Program-made: the position numbers and the translations under genes
The notes under the pieces: model-generated
Seen by the model: the letters and a program-made list of their open reading frames with translations, nothing else
Databases searched by the model: none
Told to the model about the DNA's origin: nothing
IMG/VR virus record: IMGVR_UViG_3300027985_001833
Coordinates: 1 to 64,000 of that record
DNA: 64,000 bases
Origin: a virus
Direction: 5' to 3' (one strand)
Shown here: positions 2,220 through 13,888 of the stretch, piece after piece
How the letters are laid out: every line of letters starts with the position of its first letter
Numbering within the stretch: position 1 is the first letter of the stretch

Positions 2220-5200
2220 TTATCGCGGTTCAATTACTTTTGCCCCGCCACCATTATAGATATACGTAATCGCTTGCCAACGGCGTTGTTTTTCCAACGC
2301 CACTACGATCAAATCTCCAACGTTAAAATTACCTTTCAATTTCCTCCATTCAGAACCGAAACAGATAAAATCCAAATCCAAATCAACACCAGACATCGCC
2401 ACAAACGCCATCTCGTTTCCGCGTTTATCAATTTTTGTTTTAATGCTACAAACAACACCGCAATATGTCCCGCCCACACTACTTTTTTTGAATTTCGAAT
2501 TAGTAATACGTAATTCCCTCACCGTTTCAGTCTTCCAAACATGCGATAATGCCGGATGACGACCTGTGACCAAACGCTCCCATATACTCAAGTCTTTATT
2601 AGCAACCAACTTTTTTCTCAAAATTTCCAAATCAACTGCATATCTGGCCCTAATGTTAGAATACCTAGCGTTAACGACACAACTAACAACCACAGGCGTT
2701 CCAATTCCAGAATCTATGATTGGGCGCATTTCGTCAAAAATCTCAATATCAAATTTCACTCTATTCTGCTTGCCGCTGACATCCTCGATATTGACGTTGG
2801 CGTATCTGGCGCCCCAATTCATCGCCTCGCGTTCCTCTTCAGGCGGCAACTCTCCAGTGTGAAAATCGCCTATTTGATTGTATTTCACCTCAACCATCAT
2901 CCCTGCTATATAAACGACCTTGTTATCATTCGATTTGAAAAAATCTTCCTCGCCCATTGATTCAATACGTATTTTCAAATTTTCTTTAATAAAATCACCA
3001 TAGGCGTCAATCGGATGTTTACCAAACGCCAACGGGTTAACAGCAGAGGCAATCAACTGTCTTTCCTCTGATGCGTAATCAGGTTTATCCTTCGACTTCA
3101 ACAACATCTTCTTGACCTTCTTGTATCCGTTTTCCTTGCTCAACAAAGGCCAAATAACGTCTATTTCGTCGACGAACCACTTAACGTTAGGCAGCATATT
3201 TTCCAACGCCCCTGCCTTGGCCAATGCCACAATAACCCTTTTGTTACATTTACGGCGATCTATTCTGCCCAAAAAATCGAAAAAGCTCTCATATGGTTGG
3301 TTAGCAATAATGGTATCGGCAGCAGCCTCGCCGACGTTTTTGATATCGACTAGGCTGCCTCTAATTGCATTTTCTTGCCTGTCTATTGAGAATTGGACCT
3401 TAGATGTGTTCACAGACGGGGGCAACAGTTCTATGCCTGCCCTCTTTGCCTCCTTGGCTATTTGTTGAATGCGTTGTCTGGAAGGTTCGTTCTTGAGCAA
3501 CGCCCAATAGAATTCCAATGGATGCTTAATTTTCAGATACATCGAGAAATAAGCAATCATCCCATAAGCTGTAGCGTGGGAATTATGGCTAACAACTGGA
3601 TCATATTTATCTGGATCGCTGGTCGCTACGTAATTGTGTCCCTCTGTTGCCATCTCCAAATCGTAACAACGCTTTTTGCCCATAGAGATGATTTCAATTA
3701 TTTTATCCGCATACGTCGGTCTGCCTTTTTTCCACCTTTTTGTTCGCTCCCTTTTCTCGTAATCTTTTTTCTTGTGACACGAATTACAAAGCAATTGTAA
3801 ATTAGACTCGTGGTGATAAACGATATGATTATAATCACACTCCTCTGGTGTTCTATTGTGCGCAACTTCGTGCCCACCCCTACCCTTGCACCCTTTTTCT
3901 CCGCACAACTCGCATGCGCCTTTTGCCCGCTCCCAGATTTTTTCGCACGTACACTTGTATTCTTCGTTGTTTCTGAACGATTGCGAAAATCTGGTGTCTT
4001 TATTCATCCACCAAACGCAATAATCCTTACTGGTGTTTTCGCCCATAAATAACAATTCGTCTCCAACCGATAATCCGGTATTCAACGATTTATATCCACC
4101 AGAAGTCATCAAACGATGGGCGGCGCTTATCAACGGCGTACGATTGCCATTCTCGGTGATCAACTCAAAAACTTCAATTTCACCGTGATCGTGTATATCA
4201 ACCAAACGCCCCGGTCTACAACGACCATCGGAATCCATTTGAATTATATCAATACCGCGATAACGCATTTTTTGTGCTATTGGCGTCAATGCTCCCTTGG
4301 ACCACTTTTTCAAATGAGGATGCCAAACTGGTTCCGTTCTAGAATCACGAGCAGCAACTAAATCCTTAATCGTCACCCAAGGCGTTCCTTGTTTTTGATG
4401 AGTTCCCGCTCTCAAAACATACGAATTTTCCCATAAAGTTTTGTTAAATCCGTAACTCCCAAAAAAGGTGATTGTGTCCATTATCTTATTGGCTTGGGCC
4501 TCAGTCATGTCTGGCGTGTTCTTCATCGCTCCCTTCACAAAATTCTCACGCTCTTTGCCAATCGTTTCATCGCCCTTCTTTTTAGCAATCGCCTTCCTCA
4601 ATGAATCGCTCGTGCCCGGAGCAAATCCCGCTATTTCATTAAAAATCCTGATCACGTGCTCCTGATACACCATGATTCCAAGCGTATCGGATGTAATTTC
4701 AGTCACTTTCGGATGAATTGACGCTTTCCCAATCAACTTAGGATTTTTTTTCCTTTTCACAAACTCAGTGGCCAAACCGCTCCTGGCCGTTCCGGGACGG
4801 TTCAACGCCGTCATGGCAGCCACGTCGCTAAAATCCGTAAATGGAACACCCTCGCATATCTTATCAGCACCAGGGGTATCGTATTGAAAAATGCCAGAAT
4901 AATTGTGATCTGTGAACCCTTGTAACACTTCATGTATGTTGAGGTCTAATTTCTCCAAATCTATCCATTCTCCAGTGTGTTTTTCAATCGCTTCAACGCA
5001 TTCTCTCAACACGGTCAAAGTTCTCAACCCCAAAACGTCTAATTTCACCAAGCCCATCGCTCCAACGCCATACATATCTATCGCGGTCACCAACACATCC
5101 TCGCCATTACTTTTCCTGATCTCCAACGGCACATACTCGGTCAAAGGCTCTGGCGAAACGACAACGCCTGCAGCATGGACACCCAAATTTTTAGCCATAT

Positions 5201-6881
5201 TTTCCAATCGCTTAGCGTGTTTCAATACAAACGGATATTTTTTATCAAACTCTCTACAAACTTTGAAATCCTTGAATGAATCCTCAATGGTTTGGCTGGC
5301 TCTTTCATCTCCGCTGGAGCGCTCAATGATTGAGTTAGTAATAACGTTAACCTCCAAATATGGAACCTCGTAAACCCTGGAAATGTCTTTGACACACTGT
5401 TTCCCGGATAAACGACCTATGGTGGCAATTTGAGCAACTCTGTCTGTGCCATATTTGTCTCTAAGATAACCCATGATTTCTTTTCTTCTAATGTCTTCAA
5501 AATCCATATCAATGTCAGGCATATCCACACGCTCTGGATTCAAAAATCTCTCGAAAATCAAATCATGTTCAATCGGATCAACAGAAGTCAAGCCCATCAG
5601 GTAAGCAACCAAACATCCTGCCACGGAACCACGTCCAGGCCCGCACATTATTCTATTCGTTCTTGCCCAATTATAAATGTCGTAAACCATCAAAAAATAT
5701 GGAACAAATTTTTGAACCCTGATAGAACTAAGTTCGTGAACCAAGCGCTCTTTATAAACCTGCTTCATATGAGCAGTTGACACACCTCTTTTCTGAGCCA
5801 AGATGGCAGCCCGCCTTGAAATTTCTCTCCACGTCCAACCTTGAAAACACAAATCTTTCAAATAATCCCATTCCGTTTTGAACTTGCCGGGCAACTGCAT
5901 TTTTGGGAGAAGAGCGGCGTGCCAATCGATATTCAGCCTGGCCGTTATCGTTTCGTTAAATTCCATTGTCCCATTCAACGCTGCTATGATATTCTGCTCG
6001 CCCATATATCCGTGTCTTTTAACAAAGGCTTGATACATTTGTTTGCGGCTCTTGAGAAAAAAATCGTTTCCATCAAATCTGAATCTCTCTGGATTGGATA
6101 TATGATCGTTAGTGCCGATGCAAAGAAGCACTTCGTGATGAATGTGATCCCCTTCCCAAACATAATGTGCATCCTGGGTAGCTATGAATTTGGCGTCCCC
6201 CCACCTTTCTTTCAACTCCATGGCAAATCTATTCGCCGTGATTTGATCATCTATGGCATGCGGCTGAACCTCAATCCACAAATCTTCGCCAAATTTATCA
6301 CGCAATCTATCAGCGATTTCCAAGGCTTGACGCTTTTTACCGGCGCACACCCTGTCGTAGATGACAGACGACATACATCCGGTTCCCACAACCAACCCAT
6401 CGCCGTGCTCAATTAAAGCATCCAAGTCTATTCTAGGTTTGTAGTAAAAACCATCAACGTAAGCAGCCGTGGACAACCTAAACAGATTCTTCAACCCCTC
6501 ATTATTCTTAGCCCAAACGGTCAAGTGCCAACGGTCGCGAATTCCGTGTTCACTCTCATACTTCTTAATTGCGGCCTTTCTCTCATTAGGTTTCAACCCT
6601 TTGGTGATTTCGGCCTTTTCATCCTCCGTGAGCCCTTTTCGGTGCATATCGTTGCTCACATAGAACTCAATGCCGTGAATGGCCTTTATGCCAGCATCCT
6701 CACACGCCATGTGAGACGCATAATAACCCCTCATTGACCCGTGTTCTGTGAACGCTATGGCAGGTTGCCCCAACTCCGCTGCTCTCTGTGCGTAATCGGG
6801 AATTTTCCCGCAACCGTCAAGTTGACTCATGTCAGAATGAGTGTGAAGGTGAACAAAATCGTCTTTTTCTTTTTTTGCCAT
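2220..6881 (-). CDS. dnaE: DNA polymerase III alpha subunit (family C), intein-containing
   Basis: PHP motifs HLHTHS, TEHG, GIEF, TQDAHY; GPGRGS; catalytic PDIDMDF; KLDVLGL; YGFNK/SHA split by an intein; C-terminal OB folds. Confidence 0.97.
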   Translation of the reverse strand: MAKKEKDDFVHLHTHSDMSQLDGCGKIPDYAQRAAELGQPAIAFTEHGSMRGYYASHMACEDAGIKAIHGIEFYVSNDMHRKGLTEDEKAEITKGLKPNERKAAIKKYESEHGIRDRWHLTVWAKNNEGLKNLFRLSTAAYVDGFYYKPRIDLDALIEHGDGLVVGTGCMSSVIYDRVCAGKKRQALEIADRLRDKFGEDLWIEVQPHAIDDQITANRFAMELKERWGDAKFIATQDAHYVWEGDHIHHEVLLCIGTNDHISNPERFRFDGNDFFLKSRKQMYQAFVKRHGYMGEQNIIAALNGTMEFNETITARLNIDWHAALLPKMQLPGKFKTEWDYLKDLCFQGWTWREISRRAAILAQKRGVSTAHMKQVYKERLVHELSSIRVQKFVPYFLMVYDIYNWARTNRIMCGPGRGSVAGCLVAYLMGLTSVDPIEHDLIFERFLNPERVDMPDIDMDFEDIRRKEIMGYLRDKYGTDRVAQIATIGRLSGKQCVKDISRVYEVPYLEVNVITNSIIERSSGDERASQTIEDSFKDFKVCREFDKKYPFVLKHAKRLENMAKNLGVHAAGVVVSPEPLTEYVPLEIRKSNGEDVLVTAIDMYGVGAMGLVKLDVLGLRTLTVLRECVEAIEKHTGEWIDLEKLDLNIHEVLQGFTDHNYSGIFQYDTPGADKICEGVPFTDFSDVAAMTALNRPGTARSGLATEFVKRKKNPKLIGKASIHPKVTEITSDTLGIMVYQEHVIRIFNEIAGFAPGTSDSLRKAIAKKKGDETIGKERENFVKGAMKNTPDMTEAQANKIMDTITFFGSYGFNKTLWENSYVLRAGTHQKQGTPWVTIKDLVAARDSRTEPVWHPHLKKWSKGALTPIAQKMRYRGIDIIQMDSDGRCRPGRLVDIHDHGEIEVFELITENGNRTPLISAAHRLMTSGGYKSLNTGLSVGDELLFMGENTSKDYCVWWMNKDTRFSQSFRNNEEYKCTCEKIWERAKGACELCGEKGCKGRGGHEVAHNRTPEECDYNHIVYHHESNLQLLCNSCHKKKDYEKRERTKRWKKGRPTYADKIIEIISMGKKRCYDLEMATEGHNYVATSDPDKYDPVVSHNSHATAYGMIAYFSMYLKIKHPLEFYWALLKNEPSRQRIQQIAKEAKRAGIELLPPSVNTSKVQFSIDRQENAIRGSLVDIKNVGEAAADTIIANQPYESFFDFLGRIDRRKCNKRVIVALAKAGALENMLPNVKWFVDEIDVIWPLLSKENGYKKVKKMLLKSKDKPDYASEERQLIASAVNPLAFGKHPIDAYGDFIKENLKIRIESMGEEDFFKSNDNKVVYIAGMMVEVKYNQIGDFHTGELPPEEEREAMNWGARYANVNIEDVSGKQNRVKFDIEIFDEMRPIIDSGIGTPVVVSCVVNARYSNIRARYAVDLEILRKKLVANKDLSIWERLVTGRHPALSHVWKTETVRELRITNSKFKKSSVGGTYCGVVCSIKTKIDKRGNEMAFVAMSGVDLDLDFICFGSEWRKLKGNFNVGDLIVVALEKQRRWQAITYIYNGGGAKVIEPR
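3582..4439 (-). mobile_element. Intein (286 aa) with HNH homing endonuclease inside dnaE
   Basis: Interrupts the conserved GFNK|SHA; begins TLWENS, block B-like ISAAHRL, internal CELC...HEVAH...NLQLLCNSCHKK, block F CYDLEM...HNYVA, ends VVSHN before Ser+1. Confidence 0.9.
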
Positions 6882-6882
6882 C

Positions 6883-7446
6883 TTAGACGCCTAACATGCG
6901 CAATATCCTATCAACGGTGTGCCTCGGGTCGCCTTGTTTCGTATCGATTTTGATTTTTGGAATAGTGATCATCTTCCAAACTTTATCGAATCTCTTTTGA
7001 ATGGCGGTGTAATCCTTTTTATTCGGACACCATCTGACATCCCCGACGCAACGGCTCTTGGCAACCTCATAAGCAACATCCAATTGAACGTAAACAAGCT
7101 TTCCTCTGGAACCTTGCTTGATTCTTTCTTCCCACCACTTGATCATGCTTTTGTAATTCGAGCTATCACCGGCGCAATCGTAAGCAATCGCAGATGGAAG
7201 AGAACGGTCAAGGATTATTCCAGGACTAGTCTTAGACACAAGGTCTGCCACAACCAAATCTTCCCAAAACGTATTAACCGAAACGCCCCATCTTTGTAAA
7301 TCACCGTAATCTCTTTCACCAGTAACCTTGTTGGGCCGTTTCACATCTTCAAACGGCTTGTACAGAACAAGAGTCGTCAGACCTTTCAACAAATTGGCAA
7401 CCGTCGTTTTCCCCGTCCCGTTAATCCCTTCCAACACAACAATCAT
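6883..7446 (-). CDS. Deoxynucleoside monophosphate kinase (thymidylate kinase family)
   Basis: N-terminal IVVLEGINGTGKTT P-loop and ILDRS motif. Confidence 0.85.
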   Translation of the reverse strand: MIVVLEGINGTGKTTVANLLKGLTTLVLYKPFEDVKRPNKVTGERDYGDLQRWGVSVNTFWEDLVVADLVSKTSPGIILDRSLPSAIAYDCAGDSSNYKSMIKWWEERIKQGSRGKLVYVQLDVAYEVAKSRCVGDVRWCPNKKDYTAIQKRFDKVWKMITIPKIKIDTKQGDPRHTVDRILRMLGV

Positions 7447-8438
7447 TATATCTTCTCACCAGTCGCAGGATTTCTTCTCCAAAATTTTCGATATTGAACC
7501 GCTCTATCAATCATCTCTTTCCACATATTGATATTATCAGCCGTGGCCAAACCGCCTAAATCAACCATACTATCGACGTAATCGCCTTGGCCATCAAAAT
7601 AATGGTGCTTGGCAAGATGAAGCGGGCAAGGCGGCAACTCGTCATCACCGTCCAAACGCCTTTGACACTCTTCCATATAGATACACTCTTTGAATTTATC
7701 GTCATCCCCGATGCAAGGCGGTTTGACCAAATCGGCGAAAATCGGATTCACCTTGTTCACCAATTCTTCAATCATCCCCATGATGACCGGTCCCCAAATC
7801 CCGAGTTGAAGAATAAAACAAGACCTTTTGCCTACTATATGCTGAAGCGAACCGATATTAAGCTTCCAACTGATGCGGTGATGAGCGCCCAACGGCAGCA
7901 ACTCTCTTGCGTCTTCCATAGGGATTCCCAATTCAATCAACTTACTATAAGCCCTTTGGATAGCATAGATAGTATCTTGATAAATATCGCTAGCCATCTC
8001 TCCAGCGTCAACGATTGTTTTAGGCAAACGATATTCGCCATTAACCGCAAATTTGTCGACCTTTCGAATACGATGGGATTGGCTCCACCAACTAGATGAA
8101 GCAAGATCTGGTATAATATCCAATCCCATCCTTTCTGGAGAAATCAACGTTCCTATGCGATGTCTGACCGCTTGTTCACGCCAGCTGATGGAAACGTTTT
8201 CAATTAAAAATACAAAATCTATATGTTCACCAATCGGTATACGCTGGGCGATTACGGCTTTGAACAATTTCTCCACCTCTTCAGCAGGAACTTTTTCTCT
8301 CACTTCTTCTGGCAACATCAGGGGCTCATCATCTTTCGACGCCATCCAAACAGAGTAAACAGTTTCCAAAGGGAATTGCGTCCAAGACAATAGTGTTATT
8401 CTCGGTTCATTATTCATCATCATCAAATTCCTCATCAT
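7446..8438 (-). CDS. thyX: Divergent flavin-dependent thymidylate synthase (ThyX-fold) protein
   Basis: EHIDFVF, EQAVRHRI, SQSHR, GIPMEDARELLP, N..SL.H...KR; Cys-rich C-terminus. Confidence 0.8.
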   Translation of the reverse strand: MMRNLMMMNNEPRITLLSWTQFPLETVYSVWMASKDDEPLMLPEEVREKVPAEEVEKLFKAVIAQRIPIGEHIDFVFLIENVSISWREQAVRHRIGTLISPERMGLDIIPDLASSSWWSQSHRIRKVDKFAVNGEYRLPKTIVDAGEMASDIYQDTIYAIQRAYSKLIELGIPMEDARELLPLGAHHRISWKLNIGSLQHIVGKRSCFILQLGIWGPVIMGMIEELVNKVNPIFADLVKPPCIGDDDKFKECIYMEECQRRLDGDDELPPCPLHLAKHHYFDGQGDYVDSMVDLGGLATADNINMWKEMIDRAVQYRKFWRRNPATGEKI

Positions 8439-8610
8439 CGACGAGCGGATTTCTCGTGTTCCACTCTTCCAATTCTTTTTCGTTGTTTATCCACTGCGAC
8501 TTCCATCTTTCTATAAACAACCAACAATAGTCCTTGTGAACTATTCTCCATTTTCCTTTATACAATTCAATTTCTGCGTCGCAAAACGGACAATCTTTTG
8601 GAACTTTCAT
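8410..8610 (-). CDS. Small Zn-finger protein (Lar/restriction-alleviation-like pattern)
   Basis: PKDCPFC...H...C...EEWNTR. Confidence 0.5.
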   Translation of the reverse strand: MKVPKDCPFCDAEIELYKGKWRIVHKDYCWLFIERWKSQWINNEKELEEWNTRNPLVDDEEFDDDE

Positions 8611-8680: not shown

Positions 8681-8788
8681 TCACAAATTATAGATGTCAT
8701 CGGGATTCTTGCCCGCCGCTTTGTACCCCTTCGCGTACATGGCCATATCCAAAAAACGCATTTCACCGCCACAATTCAAGCATTTCAT
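8681..8788 (-). CDS. Small hypothetical protein, 35 aa (not in ORF track)
   Basis: MKCLNCGGEMRFLDMAMYAKGYKAAGKNPDDIYNL; overlaps the end of the aminotransferase. Confidence 0.4.
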   Translation of the reverse strand: MKCLNCGGEMRFLDMAMYAKGYKAAGKNPDDIYNL

Positions 8789-9926
8789 TATACACATCGC
8801 AAAGGATGATCAAGCCTTCATTCAAATCTTCAATTGAGATATTCAAAGGCGGCGTAATTTTAATCGGTCCTGGACCCTTCCTAAAAGCTCCTATTATCAA
8901 ACCGCGCTTCAAACATCTATCGGCCAATTCCAAACAATCCACTTGGCTATCGTAGGCAAGCAACATTCCTGCCCCTCTGGCATCAACATCCAAATTGATT
9001 TTCAAAGTATTTCTGATTATATCGCCCTTTTCTTGGATATCTTCCAAATTGCCTTCATCCTCCAACCAATCCAACATAGTATCAACATATGAACAAGATG
9101 CAGGATTGCCCCCAAAAGTTGAAAAATGTGAACCTGGCGTAAAAGCCTGGGCAATGTCATTTCGTGCTAACATTGCTCCAACCGGAAATCCCATTCCAAT
9201 CCCTTTAGCCAAGGTGACAATATCAGGCTGAATTTTAGCCAATTGCCCATATGTTATGCCACCACACCGACCCATACCGGTTTGAACCTCATCAAAAATC
9301 AACAATATGCCGTTCAGTTCAGCATATCGTTTCAAATTTTCCAACCAACTCCAATCTGGAACGCGCACATCATTATTGCCGAATATTGGTGAAAGTATAA
9401 TTGCGGCAGCAGTGGGCGGAATCTCATAAATATCCGTGAAATGATGGAAATCGCCAGGCAAATTTCCAAATCCATCATAATGATAACTCGGTCCATCACC
9501 GGCTGCCAACGCACCATATGTACGCCCATGGAATCCGTCTTTTTGAGACCATATTTGGAAAGTGCGAGCTTCATCCTCAGCAAATCTATCATATTGATAT
9601 TTCCTTGCCAACTTGATAGCAGCCTCCACGGATTCCGTGCCGCTATTGCACCAAAATACCCTATCCATCCCGGTCGCTTTGCACAAACGCTTTGAAACCT
9701 GATTTCTCAAAGAATATTGAAACAAATTCGGAGAGTGCAAAACGATTCCTTGGGCCAACGCTTGAGCAGCCAGCACATGCTGCTCGCAACCATACCCAAG
9801 GCTGGCCGTCCCCACGTCTGTGAAAAAATCCAAATATTCATTCCCACCATAGGTAACGAGCCGTGAACCATTGCCGCCCACAAACACCAAATCCTTGAAT
9901 TTCAACGTATTCATGATGCTATGCAT
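8763..9926 (-). CDS. Class III PLP-dependent aminotransferase (ArgD/OAT-like fold, altered specificity residues)
   Basis: NSGTESVEAAIKLAR, FHGRTYGA, IFDEVQTGMGR, PDIVTLAKG (catalytic Lys), STFGGNP, TPPL. Confidence 0.92.
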   Translation of the reverse strand: MHSIMNTLKFKDLVFVGGNGSRLVTYGGNEYLDFFTDVGTASLGYGCEQHVLAAQALAQGIVLHSPNLFQYSLRNQVSKRLCKATGMDRVFWCNSGTESVEAAIKLARKYQYDRFAEDEARTFQIWSQKDGFHGRTYGALAAGDGPSYHYDGFGNLPGDFHHFTDIYEIPPTAAAIILSPIFGNNDVRVPDWSWLENLKRYAELNGILLIFDEVQTGMGRCGGITYGQLAKIQPDIVTLAKGIGMGFPVGAMLARNDIAQAFTPGSHFSTFGGNPASCSYVDTMLDWLEDEGNLEDIQEKGDIIRNTLKINLDVDARGAGMLLAYDSQVDCLELADRCLKRGLIIGAFRKGPGPIKITPPLNISIEDLNEGLIILCDVYNEMLELWR

Positions 9927-10860
9927 CTATTTTCTCCTTGTGAATGTTGTGAACAATTTCCTGCCAACTATTCACCGTTTTCACCAACGGCGCATCAACT
10001 TCCTTCTCTCCTTTTAAATCCAAAAGAAACACTGTAATGCCTAACGCTGAAACCTCCAGCGCGTGTTTCTCTCTGTCCTCAACAAACCATTGCGGAAACG
10101 CAGGTTTAAGATGATCACAGATAATTTCCGCTTTATCCCTACCAAATAACAACAAATCATACGGAACGCCGTATCTATCCAACCACCGTATTGTATCAGA
10201 GTACAATCTTTTGTGTTTTTTGTATGGGCGAGCTGTTATTATGGCTACTTTATAACCGATTTCTTTGAATAATTTAATACATTCAATTGAGTTGTCAATT
10301 GGAGACAAGTCAAGAAATTTCCCTTTTTCTCTCCATTCAAATTTTAACGCTTCTTGTTTGGCCAGAATCTGACTTGGCGATTCACAAGAGTTGGCTATTT
10401 CAGCCAACTCATCATCCAACGGTCCCAAATCAACAACACAACCATCTAAATCCAAACCAATCAACCGAGAATCGCTTGTCAATTTGGCTTGCGCTACTTT
10501 TACTCGATGTCGAATCACTTCTGTTTTGCGAATGAACCTATTATAAAATTCTTCGTGCGTAATTCCATATAAATGCATCAATGATATTAAGTATTTGATT
10601 ACATCAACCGCTTCCTCAAGTATGGCGCTTTCACTTATCCTCAAATCCCCCAAAATGTGCTCTTTGTAATTAGTGGACGCCGATGCCAACTCCGTCACTT
10701 CTTCGTTCAACCCAATGATAAAATCCTTGGCTAATGCTAATTTATCCACTTCCGGCATATCGCCAGAGCCAAACCCAAATTCCTGTTGCTGGAAAGCTTG
10801 TGCGCTCCAAATTTTTTCCAATTTACAACATTTAATGTTTGAATTTTGATCAAACGGCAT
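9919..10860 (-). CDS. All-alpha NTP pyrophosphatase (dUTPase/MazG-like) fused to HAD 5'(3')-nucleotidase
   Basis: N-term EEVTE...EEAVD acidic motifs; C-term GLDLDG, ITAR, K, FVED HAD motifs; start moved to ATG 10860 (GAGGGA SD). Confidence 0.8.
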   Translation of the reverse strand: MPFDQNSNIKCCKLEKIWSAQAFQQQEFGFGSGDMPEVDKLALAKDFIIGLNEEVTELASASTNYKEHILGDLRISESAILEEAVDVIKYLISLMHLYGITHEEFYNRFIRKTEVIRHRVKVAQAKLTSDSRLIGLDLDGCVVDLGPLDDELAEIANSCESPSQILAKQEALKFEWREKGKFLDLSPIDNSIECIKLFKEIGYKVAIITARPYKKHKRLYSDTIRWLDRYGVPYDLLLFGRDKAEIICDHLKPAFPQWFVEDREKHALEVSALGITVFLLDLKGEKEVDAPLVKTVNSWQEIVHNIHKEKIDA

Positions 10861-10904
10861 AGATTCCCTCGCGATTAAAACCTTGACGCACGAGACGCGC
10901 CATA

Positions 10905-11891
10905 TTACAACCATTTCTCGGCTAATTCAATTGCGTTTTCCAAAATTTTATCAACGGTTCCACGCGAATTCCATTCAGCAAAACGACCCAATGGCGCCAT
11001 ATTTTCCGGCCACTGTATTTTTTCGCCCATTGGGTGCAAGTGCCCTTTCAAACCTCTTGTTATTTTTTTTATAACATAACCAGCACCGAATATAAAATTT
11101 AAATCAGAAACGACATCTACCATTCGTGGTGCCAATTCACCATTCACTTCACAAACGTAACACACACCATCAACAGAAAAACGATGAATAGCATCACCAG
11201 GCGTATATGGCGTATAGACATAGTCCCAACCAGCATATCTATCATTTTTTGGCACAACGTCAATCAAATTCAAATTCATCGCCATAGCATCAGGAATATA
11301 AAAATCAACCAATCTCTTGATAATCCACAACGGCACGGTGAAAATCAAATAGTCAAAAGCATACCGCCTTCCCTTATCAGTCATCAGAGAATTTTCGCCC
11401 AACACTTTGATCACTTTTTCCCTCACTATCTCGCCACCATCCCTTTTCAACCTTGCGGCCAACCTATTCACCATATCCACAAAATCCAACCTGATAGCGC
11501 CCTTGGAAATACTATTGGCTGGGTCATTCATGGCGGTCTTGTAATGGCTGCCTGGCTCCATCATCCTGGTTTTACGAAAATGGTCCATTTGAATTTGTGC
11601 GACCTTGTACTTGTCCATCCGTTGAAACAATTCCGGATAGCGTTCAACCACCCCTCTGTTAAGAATTCCGCCTTTCACGGAGTAGTTGGAAAAAACCAAC
11701 CCCAAATCGATGAACAAGCCCGTCATGTTATCAGTTCGGTGTATGTACTTCAAACCGCCAGCAAGAAATTCCCCGCCCAACTTACCACACTCAAACATCT
11801 TAACATGCGCCCCAAAACTGGAAAAAATGCATGAACTCACCAATCCAGCCACACCGCCACCGACAACCAAAACGTCTTTCGGTTTACTCAT
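10905..11891 (-). CDS. FAD-dependent oxidoreductase (UDP-galactopyranose mutase/amine oxidase-like fold)
   Basis: VLVVGGGVAGL...FE...LGG dinucleotide-binding motif; C-terminal PLGRFAEW; start moved to ATG 11891 (GAGG SD). Confidence 0.8.
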   Translation of the reverse strand: MSKPKDVLVVGGGVAGLVSSCIFSSFGAHVKMFECGKLGGEFLAGGLKYIHRTDNMTGLFIDLGLVFSNYSVKGGILNRGVVERYPELFQRMDKYKVAQIQMDHFRKTRMMEPGSHYKTAMNDPANSISKGAIRLDFVDMVNRLAARLKRDGGEIVREKVIKVLGENSLMTDKGRRYAFDYLIFTVPLWIIKRLVDFYIPDAMAMNLNLIDVVPKNDRYAGWDYVYTPYTPGDAIHRFSVDGVCYVCEVNGELAPRMVDVVSDLNFIFGAGYVIKKITRGLKGHLHPMGEKIQWPENMAPLGRFAEWNSRGTVDKILENAIELAEKWL

Positions 11892-11905
11892 AAACGCCTC
11901 GCAAC

Positions 11906-11984
11906 ATAATAGGAAAACGCGCTGTCGAATGTGGAAACCGGCCAAAGTTTTGCCAGCAGATCGAGCAGCGCGTTTTCCTATTAT
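11906..11984. repeat. Perfect 19-bp inverted repeat (ataataggaaaacgcgctg / cagcgcgttttcctattat) around a 41-nt partly paired core
   Basis: Arms at 11906-11924 and 11966-11984. Confidence 0.92.
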
Positions 11985-12008
11985 ACCGTACAGCAATGTT
12001 CATAGCAA
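11980..12008 (-). promoter_or_regulatory. Sigma70-type promoter for the nucleotide-metabolism/dnaE operon
   Basis: TTGCTA-17 nt-TATAAT. Confidence 0.7.
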
Positions 12009-12024: not shown

Positions 12025-12795
12025 TTATTCAGGCAAACCCAACACGCCAGCCGATACCAATTGACCAATACTTTCTGCCATTATGGATAATTTTCTTTTA
12101 TCCAACCCTTTAATTAATATATTGAAATTTTTATTTTTTCTCGATACCGGCTTCAATATTTCCAAATTGGCCTTAGATAGATTAAGCGTCATATCATCTA
12201 ATGCACAGGTCAATTCCGCATCAAATGTATCGGACGCAGGCCGCAGCTTCAGAAGAATCAATAAAGCATCCCTGCCGTAATTTGCACGAACATACACAGC
12301 CACATAACCGCTGGTTTTTGATCTATCCGCGACAAACAACTTTCCCGGAGTCGGGACTGTGCCTGCAATAGCAAATTCATATCCGGGCATGCTCTTCAAC
12401 AATCGTTGGACAAAAAAATCAAACTTTTTCAACAACTTTTCTCTTTTAATTTTAGCATTAGTCCTTTTGGCCTTCTTGGATGCCAAAATGGCAACACGAG
12501 ATGGCCCGTTGCGCCTAGCATCTTGTCTGCTTCGTTTTTTCCGCGCATTGGACAATTTATCGCAAAAACGCAAAAACGCCCCGTCATCACCGTTTGATTC
12601 AAATCCATCATCGGTCTCGGTCAAAAAAACACCCAAACTAAGTTTTTGATCTTTCAAATGATTTCTGAACGCTCTACAAATTCTTTTTAAATCACAAGGC
12701 TGCCGCTCATCCGAATCCGTTGAAGCGACATTGCCATCACAAGCACAATTGAATTTTTTATATCTCGAAAAACATTGCGGTAATTTATCGCCCAT
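12025..12795 (-). CDS. Hypothetical basic protein with N-terminal Cys cluster
   Basis: CF...CACDG...PC...C; overlaps the sigma-like gene. Confidence 0.6.
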   Translation of the reverse strand: MGDKLPQCFSRYKKFNCACDGNVASTDSDERQPCDLKRICRAFRNHLKDQKLSLGVFLTETDDGFESNGDDGAFLRFCDKLSNARKKRSRQDARRNGPSRVAILASKKAKRTNAKIKREKLLKKFDFFVQRLLKSMPGYEFAIAGTVPTPGKLFVADRSKTSGYVAVYVRANYGRDALLILLKLRPASDTFDAELTCALDDMTLNLSKANLEILKPVSRKNKNFNILIKGLDKRKLSIMAESIGQLVSAGVLGLPE

Positions 12796-13888
12796 TCTTC
12801 GCCTTCCTCAATTCAGCAACCAAACATCCATACCAATCGACCGGGATTTTCTCTATGGTTCCTATATCTCCAAACAACAAACCTTGTATGACATCGAAGT
12901 GACCGACCAAAACCAAGGTACAACACTCTTTGCCTCGCTTTATAAGCATAACAACGCCCCAGTTATAAAAATCAATATCTCTAGTATAAATACCGTTTTC
13001 TTCACAAATCCTGTTTATCACAACGTCATCCAGAGACATTTTGGATATAATTTTTGAAATCAGTTTTTCATCTCTCTTATCCATTCTGCTGATGTGAATT
13101 ATCGGCCATCTTTTACTATTTACCATGTCACCGTACAGACTTATGAATTCATCTTTCTTGGCCAGCTTGGTAAAACGCCTCTTAATAGCGTGTATGGCCC
13201 ACGAAACTTGATTCATAGTCAAATCCAATTCTTGGGCAACATCATAAATTGTCTTTTTGCTTCCAAACAATATTTTGGTTAATCTATTTTGGGCCGACGA
13301 ATCGTCTATATCAAACAAACTAAAATAGACATCCCTTTCCCTGTCAGTCATCTCTTCCATTAATTTTTTTTCAAATTTCACCAACAAGTTGTAATTCTGC
13401 AGCTTGATTAATTGTTCACACGGATTTCCATCGATGCCAAAATTATGAATGATCTTGTGAAGCACATCTTCATCTATATTATTCAACTTCATAGCATTCA
13501 CACGAACACCATATTGATCGCAACTGTTATTCGCACATGCCCAAGCGCCCTTATTTTTCAACATAATTTTACCACATGCCCAACAAACGTATCTTCTTGG
13601 CGCGTTATTGACATAAGCTCCACAAGCTTGATATTGGTTTACCATCTTGGATAGCATCGGTATAAACATAGTGTCCAACACCTTACCCGCAAACGCTGCC
13701 AACGTTCCTCTTCTCGTATCATCATAATGACCCAAGGCATCCAGCAAAAACATCTTGGCCTCTTGCTTATAATCATCTATGGTGAAACTAGGATCCACAT
13801 TGGCTAGATAATCATATTTACGTGCCTTCATGTTTATCAACGAATCCAAACTTTTCAAAACTTCTACTGCTGATTTTTGGTGTACCAT
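12785..13888 (-). CDS. Sigma70-family-like factor with Zn-ribbon insertion and C-terminal extension
   Basis: Region 2-like DDYKQEAKMFLLDALGHYDDTRRGTLAAFA; region 4-like MTDRERDVY...KTIYDVAQELDLTMNQVSWAIHAIKRR. Confidence 0.7.
   Translation of the reverse strand: MVHQKSAVEVLKSLDSLINMKARKYDYLANVDPSFTIDDYKQEAKMFLLDALGHYDDTRRGTLAAFAGKVLDTMFIPMLSKMVNQYQACGAYVNNAPRRYVCWACGKIMLKNKGAWACANNSCDQYGVRVNAMKLNNIDEDVLHKIIHNFGIDGNPCEQLIKLQNYNLLVKFEKKLMEEMTDRERDVYFSLFDIDDSSAQNRLTKILFGSKKTIYDVAQELDLTMNQVSWAIHAIKRRFTKLAKKDEFISLYGDMVNSKRWPIIHISRMDKRDEKLISKIISKMSLDDVVINRICEENGIYTRDIDFYNWGVVMLIKRGKECCTLVLVGHFDVIQGLLFGDIGTIEKIPVDWYGCLVAELRKAKNGR

Follow-up and report, generated by a model that had tools for sequence, protein, structure and literature searches.

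A ThyX-like phage protein with an apparently intact nucleotide side and a rebuilt cofactor side of the active site, and its linkage to an aminotransferase

As far as we know, every pre-replicative replacement of a pyrimidine described in phages has an enzyme of the ThyA family as its starting point. Here we describe a relative of the flavin-dependent thymidylate synthase ThyX which is encoded in a 64,000-nucleotide stretch of phage DNA, positions 1 to 64,000 of the IMG/VR virus record IMGVR_UViG_3300027985_001833 (this whole stretch is called the window below), and which appears to combine the nucleotide-binding residues of ThyX with a differently built cofactor side. In ThyX of Thermotoga maritima, whose numbering is used below, His53 stacks on the folate pterin and the reduced isoalloxazine, while Tyr91 hydrogen-bonds His53 and Arg90 and has been proposed as the general acid; its mutation makes flavin oxidation about 1000-fold slower (PMC11940539). 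The phosphates and the ribityl of flavin adenine dinucleotide (FAD) are held by the RHR motif plus a conserved Ser and a conserved Arg (Ser71/Arg190 in Mycobacterium tuberculosis, Ser50/Arg165 in Helicobacter pylori), and a conserved Tyr forms a lid over uracil C5 and flavin N5 (PMC6514825).

The ThyX-like open reading frame (ORF) of the window (Table 1) matches the Pfam family PF02511 (Thy1) with 72.3 bits (E 5.8e-20, gathering score 24.8), as well as PHROG 85, 'thymidylate synthase'; with 58.5 bits it does not reach the cut-off of the NCBIfam thyX equivalog TIGR02170, which is 87.9 bits. A Thy1 domain above the gathering score together with the ThyX fold places the protein in the ThyX/Thy1 superfamily. 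An AlphaFold2 model built on 60 diverse relatives has a mean predicted local distance difference test score (pLDDT) of 86.5 and a predicted template modelling score of 0.85, and its top Foldseek matches are ThyX structures only (T. maritima: E 2.5e-9, probability 1.00, TMt 0.75, 20% identity). VIA-align gave Z scores of 14.6 with M. tuberculosis ThyX, 14.5 with T. maritima ThyX and 13.2-13.9 with PolB, and a search of the ESM Atlas with the whole protein returned Thy1 clusters only. The protein, with a predicted mass of 37 kDa, probably starts at M6-M8 and not at M1 (ATG at 8423-8415, with GAGGA upstream), a region which overlaps the stop of an upstream 66-amino-acid (aa) ORF.

We counted the residues at key positions in 227 full-length relatives; motif coordinates were re-translated from 7446-8438 on the minus strand, and the equivalences with T. 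maritima ThyX rest on HMMER alignments. In these alignments E71-H72 corresponds to E58-H59, which puts R66 at the position of His53 and P68 at that of Thr55, N194-I-G196 is aligned with N163-A-R165, and R205 with R174. The positions which in ThyX bind the nucleotide are nearly invariant. R87 and R123 (the Arg90 equivalent) are present in all 227 relatives, R92 of the RHR motif, R178 (Arg147) and R205 (Arg174) in 226 each, H93 and R94 of the RHR motif in 219 and 212, and Q89 (Gln75) in 218, while S121 (Ser88) is Ser in 185 and Thr in 37 more. The set of residues that binds deoxyuridine monophosphate (dUMP) in ThyX, i.e. both Arg of RHR and the equivalents of Ser88, Arg90, Arg147 and Arg174, is retained family-wide. 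The equivalents of His53, Ser/Thr55, Tyr91 and Arg165 are, family-wide, all replaced. Position 66 (His53) is unconstrained (R in 75 relatives, K in 34, D in 31, H in 30 and G in 19), position 68 (Thr/Ser55) is Pro in 224/227, position 124 (Tyr91) is Ile, Val or Leu with Tyr in three relatives, and position 196 (Arg165) is Gly, Ser, Ala or Lys with Arg in eight. The counterpart of S-x-R-Y is S121-H-R123-I124, for which the family consensus is SMRI. Because the published roles of the lost residues fall on the folate/flavin side, the sequence comparison points to an active site whose nucleotide side is intact and whose cofactor side is rebuilt. These motif features hold across the family and are no chance oddity of one sequence.

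An earlier note, made from the letters of the window alone, had read the motifs in the same way. It had described an insertion of about 20 aa in RHRx7S, and 26 residues instead of 7 lie between RHR and S121, which makes 19 inserted aa. Its readings of SHRI for SxRY (S121-H-R123-I124 in the translation), of Arg for His53 (R66, from the alignment of E71-H72 to E58-H59) and of NIG for NxR (N194-I-G196 versus N163-A-R165) are borne out, as is the retention of RHR, ARxxLP (A177-R178-E-L-L-P182) and the downstream Arg (R205). The retained nucleotide binding which it proposed appears well supported, R87, Q89, R92, H93, R94, S121, R123, R178 and R205 being conserved in 185-227 of the 227 relatives. 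Retained flavin binding, which it also proposed, stands as far as RHR stays in place, but two ligands of the FAD phosphates are gone. A changed one-carbon or reductive chemistry, as suggested there, would fit the family-wide replacement of all four residues with published cofactor-side roles. The same substitutions in validated cellular ThyX enzymes would have spoken for ordinary chemistry; they are absent from the residues described for the T. maritima, M. tuberculosis and H. pylori enzymes (PMC11940539, PMC6514825).

The two insertions are also features of the family. In 178 relatives the spacer between RHR and the Ser motif has 24-38 residues, as against 7 in ThyX, so the compact signature of ThyX is absent; within it G105, D107, P110, S115 and W118 are conserved. 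The inserted loop (residues 100-115, pLDDT 47-62) is the only part of the model with low confidence. The insertion bearing the cysteines follows the core helices of ThyX and precedes its last helix. In VIA-align residues 9-322 of the model correspond to residues 6-217 of the ThyX chain, therefore helix 306-320 is the C-terminal helix of ThyX and the Cys stretch (about 236-300) is an insertion, not a tail. When residues 200-330 were searched separately against the ESM Atlas, nothing informative that resembles the Cys region came up. A C-terminal metal motif of the form C...C...C...CxxH, which the earlier note had drawn from C242, C252, C258, C271 and H274, holds in part: C242, C252 and C271 are each invariant (227/227), but C258 is Cys in only 76/227 relatives, H274 is His in 120/227, and C207 (225/227), a Cys of the ThyX core two residues past the catalytic Arg, was missing from that set. 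C207, C242, C252 and C271 could form a Cys4 metal site, either for an iron-sulfur cluster or for zinc, and all four sit in a confidently modelled region (pLDDT 91-97).

Several ThyX-like relatives carry inteins of 126-331 aa which start with C-x-x-G/P-D-T and end with H-N. They are inserted directly before the equivalent of C207 (relatives P0121, P0158, P0253 and P0181), between the equivalents of Q120 and S121 (P0123 and P0124) or before the equivalent of S119 (P0203), with the invariant Ser or C207 at position +1. The homing targets of inteins are typically conserved catalytic sites in proteins that are needed, and their positions here are consistent with both motifs being functionally critical.

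The family is large. A word-indexed search with the ThyX-like protein returned 346 proteins, the top 120 of which are 306-366 aa long and 54-66% identical to it, and 177 clusters had E <= 1e-30 in an exhaustive HMMER search that covered 1.84 billion cluster representatives. Among cultured phages there is no close homologue, the best matches (Listeria phage LIS04 and PB1-like Pseudomonas phages) being 27-29% identical. No cellular members were found in two pattern scans of 185,579 species genomes, which are limited by their patterns and do not prove absence. Within the limits of these searches the family is a large virus-only branch. A description of such a subfamily was not found in a literature search that was thin on subscription journals, and we regard the protein as a new, uncharacterised variant inside the ThyX family. 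The source record is 78.5 kb long and 77% complete; the stretch is present at full share in a hydrothermal-vent metagenome run and in a generic 'metagenome' run, and at a share of 0.43 in a marine run (contigs), and no RNA run is listed among those containing it.

Table 1. Positions in the window of the ThyX-like gene, its motifs and insertions, and the neighbouring genes.
Feature	Position	Strand	Basis or remark
ThyX-like ORF	7446..8438	(-)	330 aa as listed; ORF list, Pfam Thy1, AlphaFold2, Foldseek, VIA-align
QRIPIGEH (residues 65-72), counterpart of GH(E/x)(S/T)PxEH	8223..8246	(-)	HMMER against T. maritima ThyX; residue frequencies
RHR motif (R92-H93-R94), kept	8157..8165	(-)	HMMER, frequencies, re-translation
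Spacer from RHR to Ser motif (residues 95-118) with the 19-aa insertion	8085..8156	(-)	AlphaFold2, frequencies
SQSHRI (residues 119-124): S121 = Ser88, R123 = Arg90, I124 in place of Tyr91	8067..8084	(-)	
ARELLP (residues 177-182), R178 = Arg147	7893..7910	(-)	Alignments, frequencies
NIGSLQHIVGKRSC (residues 194-207): G196 in place of Arg165, R205 = Arg174, C207 = first invariant Cys	7818..7859	(-)	
Cys-bearing insertion (residues 240-274; PPC...C...PPCP) with invariant C242, C252, C271	7617..7721	(-)	Frequencies, VIA-align
C-terminal helix and tail (residues 306-330), invariant W320, WxRDPxxG-type ending	7449..7523	(-)	
Thymidylate-kinase-like deoxynucleoside monophosphate (dNMP) kinase, part of the four-gene block	6883..7446	(-)	Pfam, PHROG, synteny
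Class-III (ArgD-family) aminotransferase	8763..9926	(-)	Pfam E 1.9e-70; NCBIfam; synteny
All-alpha nucleoside triphosphate pyrophosphohydrolase-like N-domain fused to HAD NT5C-type 5'(3')-deoxyribonucleotidase (MazG-HAD)	9919..10914	(-)	Pfam, PDB
FAD oxidoreductase, amine-oxidase / UDP-galactopyranose-mutase / renalase fold	10905..11891	(-)	328 aa from ATG; AlphaFold2, Foldseek
DnaE-type DNA polymerase with intein, directly downstream of the block	2220..6881	(-)	ORF list, synteny

To see in which surroundings the ThyX-like gene occurs, we compared 34 IMG/VR loci, 29 loci found via the flavoprotein and 80 metagenome loci. Three settings can be distinguished. In the first, represented by about 34 loci from phages of about 100 kb, the order is FAD oxidoreductase, MazG-HAD fusion, class-III aminotransferase, ThyX-like gene, dNMP kinase and then DnaE; the aminotransferase is adjacent to the ThyX-like gene, on either side, in every DnaE-type locus with enough flank. 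The second consists of about 15 PolA-type loci (including L161, L163, L164, L167, L175, L177, L178, L183, L184, L188, L195, L024 and L030) with an AAA_24 gene, a gene of the nucleoside-2-deoxyribosyltransferase family, an HD YfbR-like 5'-deoxynucleotidase, sometimes DUF6378, the ThyX-like gene and PolA; here the aminotransferase, the flavoprotein and the kinase are all absent within 6 kb. In the third, one other, unrelated backbone (L025/L189), the ThyX-like gene occurs with an aminotransferase and a kinase-like gene. A predicted dNMP-destroying enzyme stands beside the ThyX-like gene in both main backbones, of the HAD NT5C type in the DnaE and of the HD YfbR type in the PolA phages, and these folds are unrelated.

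The sister phage G007 (IMG/VR UViG_3300028610_002211, complete, 104 kb; loci L072:1348-2181 and L067) offers a natural experiment. Its backbone is 47% identical in UvsW, 45% in DnaB, 47% in DnaG, 35% in the FAD oxidoreductase and 58% in DnaE, and the flavoprotein is retained directly upstream of DnaE. A tblastn search of the whole genome found no MazG-HAD, aminotransferase, ThyX-like gene or kinase. It follows that these four genes come and go as a block, of which the flavoprotein, being retained, is not strictly a part. Elsewhere G007 encodes a 277-aa Thy1 protein with H-x-S and NxR kept and RTR in place of RHR. Another comparison was made between 22 ThyX-like proteins of the first setting and 17 of the second, for positions at least 90% conserved in both: 52 of 52 such positions are identical and none is conserved but different. 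We therefore expect one and the same chemistry whether or not an aminotransferase is present. This speaks against an amine supplied by the aminotransferase being a substrate of the enzyme itself, and for all members making a common product, which is then tailored further in phages of the first setting. Five complete genomes (104-116 kb) are devoid of ThyA homologues, and each has the ThyX-like gene as its single Thy1 gene. This fits an ordinary synthase of thymidine monophosphate (dTMP) and a phage which replaces its thymidine equally well.

As for what the enzyme makes, we see about an even chance that its product is a C5-substituted dUMP other than dTMP. It would bind a uracil deoxynucleotide as ThyX does and add a one-carbon unit at C5; the residues on the folate/NADPH side and those of the lid would be replaced by the new loop of 19-38 residues, the putative Cys4 site (C207, C242, C252, C271) would lie two residues after the catalytic Arg, and the reductive step to the methyl would be altered, with 5-hydroxymethyl-dUMP as the simplest candidate for a product. 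In the DnaE-type phages the linked aminotransferase would tailor this product, the dNMP kinase would phosphorylate it and the phage polymerase would use it, while the MazG-HAD fusion would remove the competing canonical nucleotide. What the comparisons show directly are the fold, the kept and lost residues, the invariant Cys, the distribution within the limits of the searches, the block-wise linkage and the identical active site in the two main settings; that a flavin is used, what the metal is, what is made and in which order the reactions follow each other is inferred. A product other than dTMP is favoured by the aminotransferase being co-inherited with the ThyX-like gene in two backbones and lost together with it, by the loss of the catalytic-side Tyr and His, and by the dNMP-destroying enzymes of two unrelated folds in two unrelated backbones. 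A pyridoxal-phosphate-dependent (PLP) aminotransferase has no role in the route from dUMP to thymidine triphosphate. The suggestion of the earlier note that the product may not be dTMP gains from this block-wise linkage, but a number of observations weigh on the other side. The gene is the sole thymidylate-synthase-like gene in five complete genomes, as would be expected of an ordinary dTMP synthase; the same active site (52/52) is found in about 15 PolA-type loci, in an unremarkable context without the aminotransferase, which is consequently not needed for the reaction; the nucleotide site and RHR are retained; the new loop with its invariant Trp and Ser could replace the lost Tyr and His; and our literature search found no ThyX-fold enzyme that makes anything except (r)dTMP. 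A more specific version of a non-dTMP product, which we consider less likely than not, is that the protein would be the first of the ThyX fold not to make a methyl, and would act on dUMP as a C5 hydroxymethylase or methylene transferase that depends on a flavin and a metal cluster. In the DnaE-type phages of about 100 kb oxidation and transamination would take place at the nucleotide level (e.g. 5-formyl-dUMP to 5-aminomethyl-dUMP), followed by phosphorylation and polymerisation, and an amine-bearing substitute for thymidine would thus be ready before the DNA is replicated; PolA-type phages, which would rely on this enzyme alone, would have hydroxymethyl-dU in their DNA.

The rebuilt cofactor side could also be attributed to a dTMP synthase of the ordinary kind that obtains its electrons or its carbon from a new source, for which we see a substantial chance, if less than an even one. 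The flavin would then be reduced via the Cys4 site and not by NADPH stacked on His53, the Cys4 site being possibly an Fe-S cluster fed by a ferredoxin, a flavodoxin or the neighbouring flavoprotein, the loop would take over the role of Tyr91 as lid or acid, and the aminotransferase and MazG-HAD would serve another purpose. The single Thy-type gene of the five complete genomes, the retention of all dUMP ligands and of RHR, and the identical active site in PolA-type phages with their otherwise unremarkable nucleotide-salvage context are what such an enzyme predicts, and the presence of a canonical-type Thy1 in G007 may mean that one gene was displaced by another with an analogous role. Methylation might survive the loss of the folate-stacking His, as free formaldehyde is usable as a carbon source by ThyX, according to the titles of PDB entries 7ndw and 7ndz. 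Synthesis of dTMP leaves unexplained, however, why a PLP aminotransferase is co-inherited in two backbones and jointly lost, the score is under the thyX equivalog cut-off, and the Tyr91 equivalent is aliphatic in a family whose canonical relatives become 1000-fold slower when Tyr91 is mutated (PMC11940539). The tight linkage of the aminotransferase would find a direct explanation if an amine made by it trapped an exocyclic-methylene dUMP intermediate in the enzyme to give an aminoalkyl-methyl-dUMP, as in MnmEG with glycine, an analogy drawn in PMC8989533, and the new loop could form the extra pocket. The 52 identical positions, none of them specific for loci with the aminotransferase, make this quite improbable, as the amine would have to be a host metabolite in loci without it. 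Least probable of all, in our opinion, is that the protein is a nucleotide-binding regulator without catalysis or acts on deoxycytidine monophosphate, uridine monophosphate (UMP) or nucleic acid. Several residues of the ThyX catalytic side are indeed lost, and a shift of a ThyX paralogue to UMP has a precedent in PolB (PMC5954106; VIA-align Z 13.9). Still, PolB is no closer to this family than ThyX itself in profile and structure comparisons, and the strong purifying selection on the whole active site and the inteins at its catalytic motifs speak against such a role. Arg174 and Arg90 of ThyX contact uracil, and their invariant equivalents argue for uracil over cytosine.

Two leads on a product other than dTMP were tried and dropped. 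The phages that carry the block strongly avoid palindromes of four and six nucleotides (e.g. CTCGAG, 0 found versus 46-79 expected), but avoidance as a proxy for modified thymidine is equally strong in PhiW-14 and SPO1 (6-mer observed/expected ratio 0.78-0.79) and therefore non-discriminating. PhiW-14 carries putrescinyl-thymine and SPO1 carries hydroxymethyluracil. CTCGAG is absent or near-absent in G001-G005 and G007 (loci L078-L113; 0-4 found versus 32-80 expected), with or without the block, and the G+C content across the lineage of these phages ranges from 41% to 60%. A link with SP-15, the phage with dihydroxypentyl-uracil, was dropped as neither the family profile nor the LIS04 protein has a match in SP-15; a divergent Thy1 was proposed as hydroxymethyl-dUMP synthase in the SP-15 paper, which is a hypothesis about a different protein (PMC5977210). 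LIS04 (L041, OQ999172.1) is assigned to the species Thornevirus SP15, but its record falls 40 kb short of SP-15, in whose genome no counterpart of the LIS04 ThyX-like protein is detectable; the species label looks doubtful.

Among the neighbouring genes in the window, the kinase has a start codon which shares base 7446 with the stop codon of the ThyX-like gene. The aminotransferase scores under every NCBIfam equivalog cut-off, and its matches in cultured phages are bacterial-type ArgD/AstC genes, many of them in unannotated or clearly bacterial records. In the MazG-HAD fusion NT5C is found with 28.7 bits (cut-off 24.8) and PRA-PH under its cut-off (Pfam), and the HAD half resembles human 5'(3')-deoxyribonucleotidases (PDB cdN/mdN, E about 0.02). 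The model of the FAD oxidoreductase (pLDDT 93.6) was placed by Foldseek in the superfamily of amine oxidases, UDP-galactopyranose mutase, protoporphyrinogen oxidase and renalase with no pointer to the substrate, while a sequence-only search of the PDB gave matches to the Rossmann motif only; relatives of it were not found in cultured phages. Its listed ORF, 10905-11996 (-), begins at TTG and has 363 aa. Homologues have 318-374 aa and start near the ATG at 11891, just before GxGxxG, and the true length is probably 328 aa. DnaE has 1553 aa with an insertion that contains a Cys/His-rich nuclease-like segment, and the lengths of DnaE in related loci vary accordingly. Two ORFs of 256 and 367 aa at 12025-13888 (-), which precede the flavoprotein, have no family match and are found with 21-33% identity in most related loci. 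The 256-aa ORF is retained in G007, and both may belong to the replication backbone and not to the nucleotide block. The 66-aa ORF at 8410-8610 (-), between the aminotransferase and the ThyX-like gene, encodes C-x-x-C and a very acidic C-terminus. Since tblastn found no match to it in any related locus, it is either specific to this phage or no gene.

If dTMP is made, the family could reveal another means of driving flavin-dependent thymidylate synthesis, of interest for the mechanism of ThyX and for work on its inhibitors. If the product is another nucleotide, the enzyme could stand at the entry to a so far undescribed modification of DNA bases, of importance for conflict between phages and hosts, for evasion of restriction and CRISPR, and for sequencing bias in viromes. 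With either meaning there is a large, environmentally widespread, virus-only branch of ThyX with an apparently rebuilt cofactor side, a putative Cys4 site and a co-inherited aminotransferase.

Compared with known systems, the protein is closest to ThyX (T. maritima TM0449, PDB 1O26/4GT9/8REO; M. tuberculosis, PDB 3GWC), with which it shares the fold (Z 14.5-14.6, root-mean-square deviation 2.4-3.2 over 200-209 residues), RHR and the equivalents of Ser88, Arg90, Arg147, Arg174 and Gln75. It differs from ThyX in about 20% identity only, in a score under the NCBIfam thyX cut-off, in the insertion of 19-38 aa in the RHRx7S loop, in the replaced equivalents of His53, Thr/Ser55, Tyr91 and Arg165, in an insertion of 60-70 aa with three invariant Cys plus C207, and in its virus-only distribution. 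PolB, the C5-methylase of UMP/dUMP in polyoxin synthesis (PDB 4P5A/4P5B), is a paralogue of ThyX that has undergone neofunctionalisation and has additional loops, which makes it a precedent for a new function on this fold, although it still makes a methyl group (PMC5954106). It is no closer to this family than canonical ThyX (profile E 1.1e-4 versus 1.6e-9; Z 13.2-13.9 versus 14.5). The RTR-type Thy1 of PB1-like Pseudomonas phages and of G007 is found on the same replication backbone (DnaE, helicases) and has the Thy1 domain, with RTR for RHR and without the loop insertion and the Cys4 set; the G007 copy keeps H-x-S and NxR. The best profile match in a cultured phage is LIS04_124 of Listeria phage LIS04 (E 3.4e-29, 27% identity), which shares the motifs W-x-Q-x-S-R and LW-x-P-I, the C-terminal W and, as in the second setting, a neighbourhood with PolA, an HD protein and a nucleoside deoxyribosyltransferase. 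It has VRSK in place of RHR and is without the loop insertion and the four Cys.

The pre-replicative replacement of thymidine in SPO1-type Bacillus phages uses a ThyA-family dUMP hydroxymethylase, a dNMP kinase and enzymes that destroy thymidine tri- and monophosphate. The putative system described here differs in the ThyX instead of the ThyA fold and in the additional aminotransferase and flavoprotein of the amine-oxidase fold. Going by homology, the gene types on which such replacement modules rely (as in T4, SPO1 and Z-genome phages) stand together in one operon in about 34 loci: a homologue of C5 synthases, a kinase for dNMPs, a putative pyrophosphatase-nucleotidase and a polymerase encoded by the phage.

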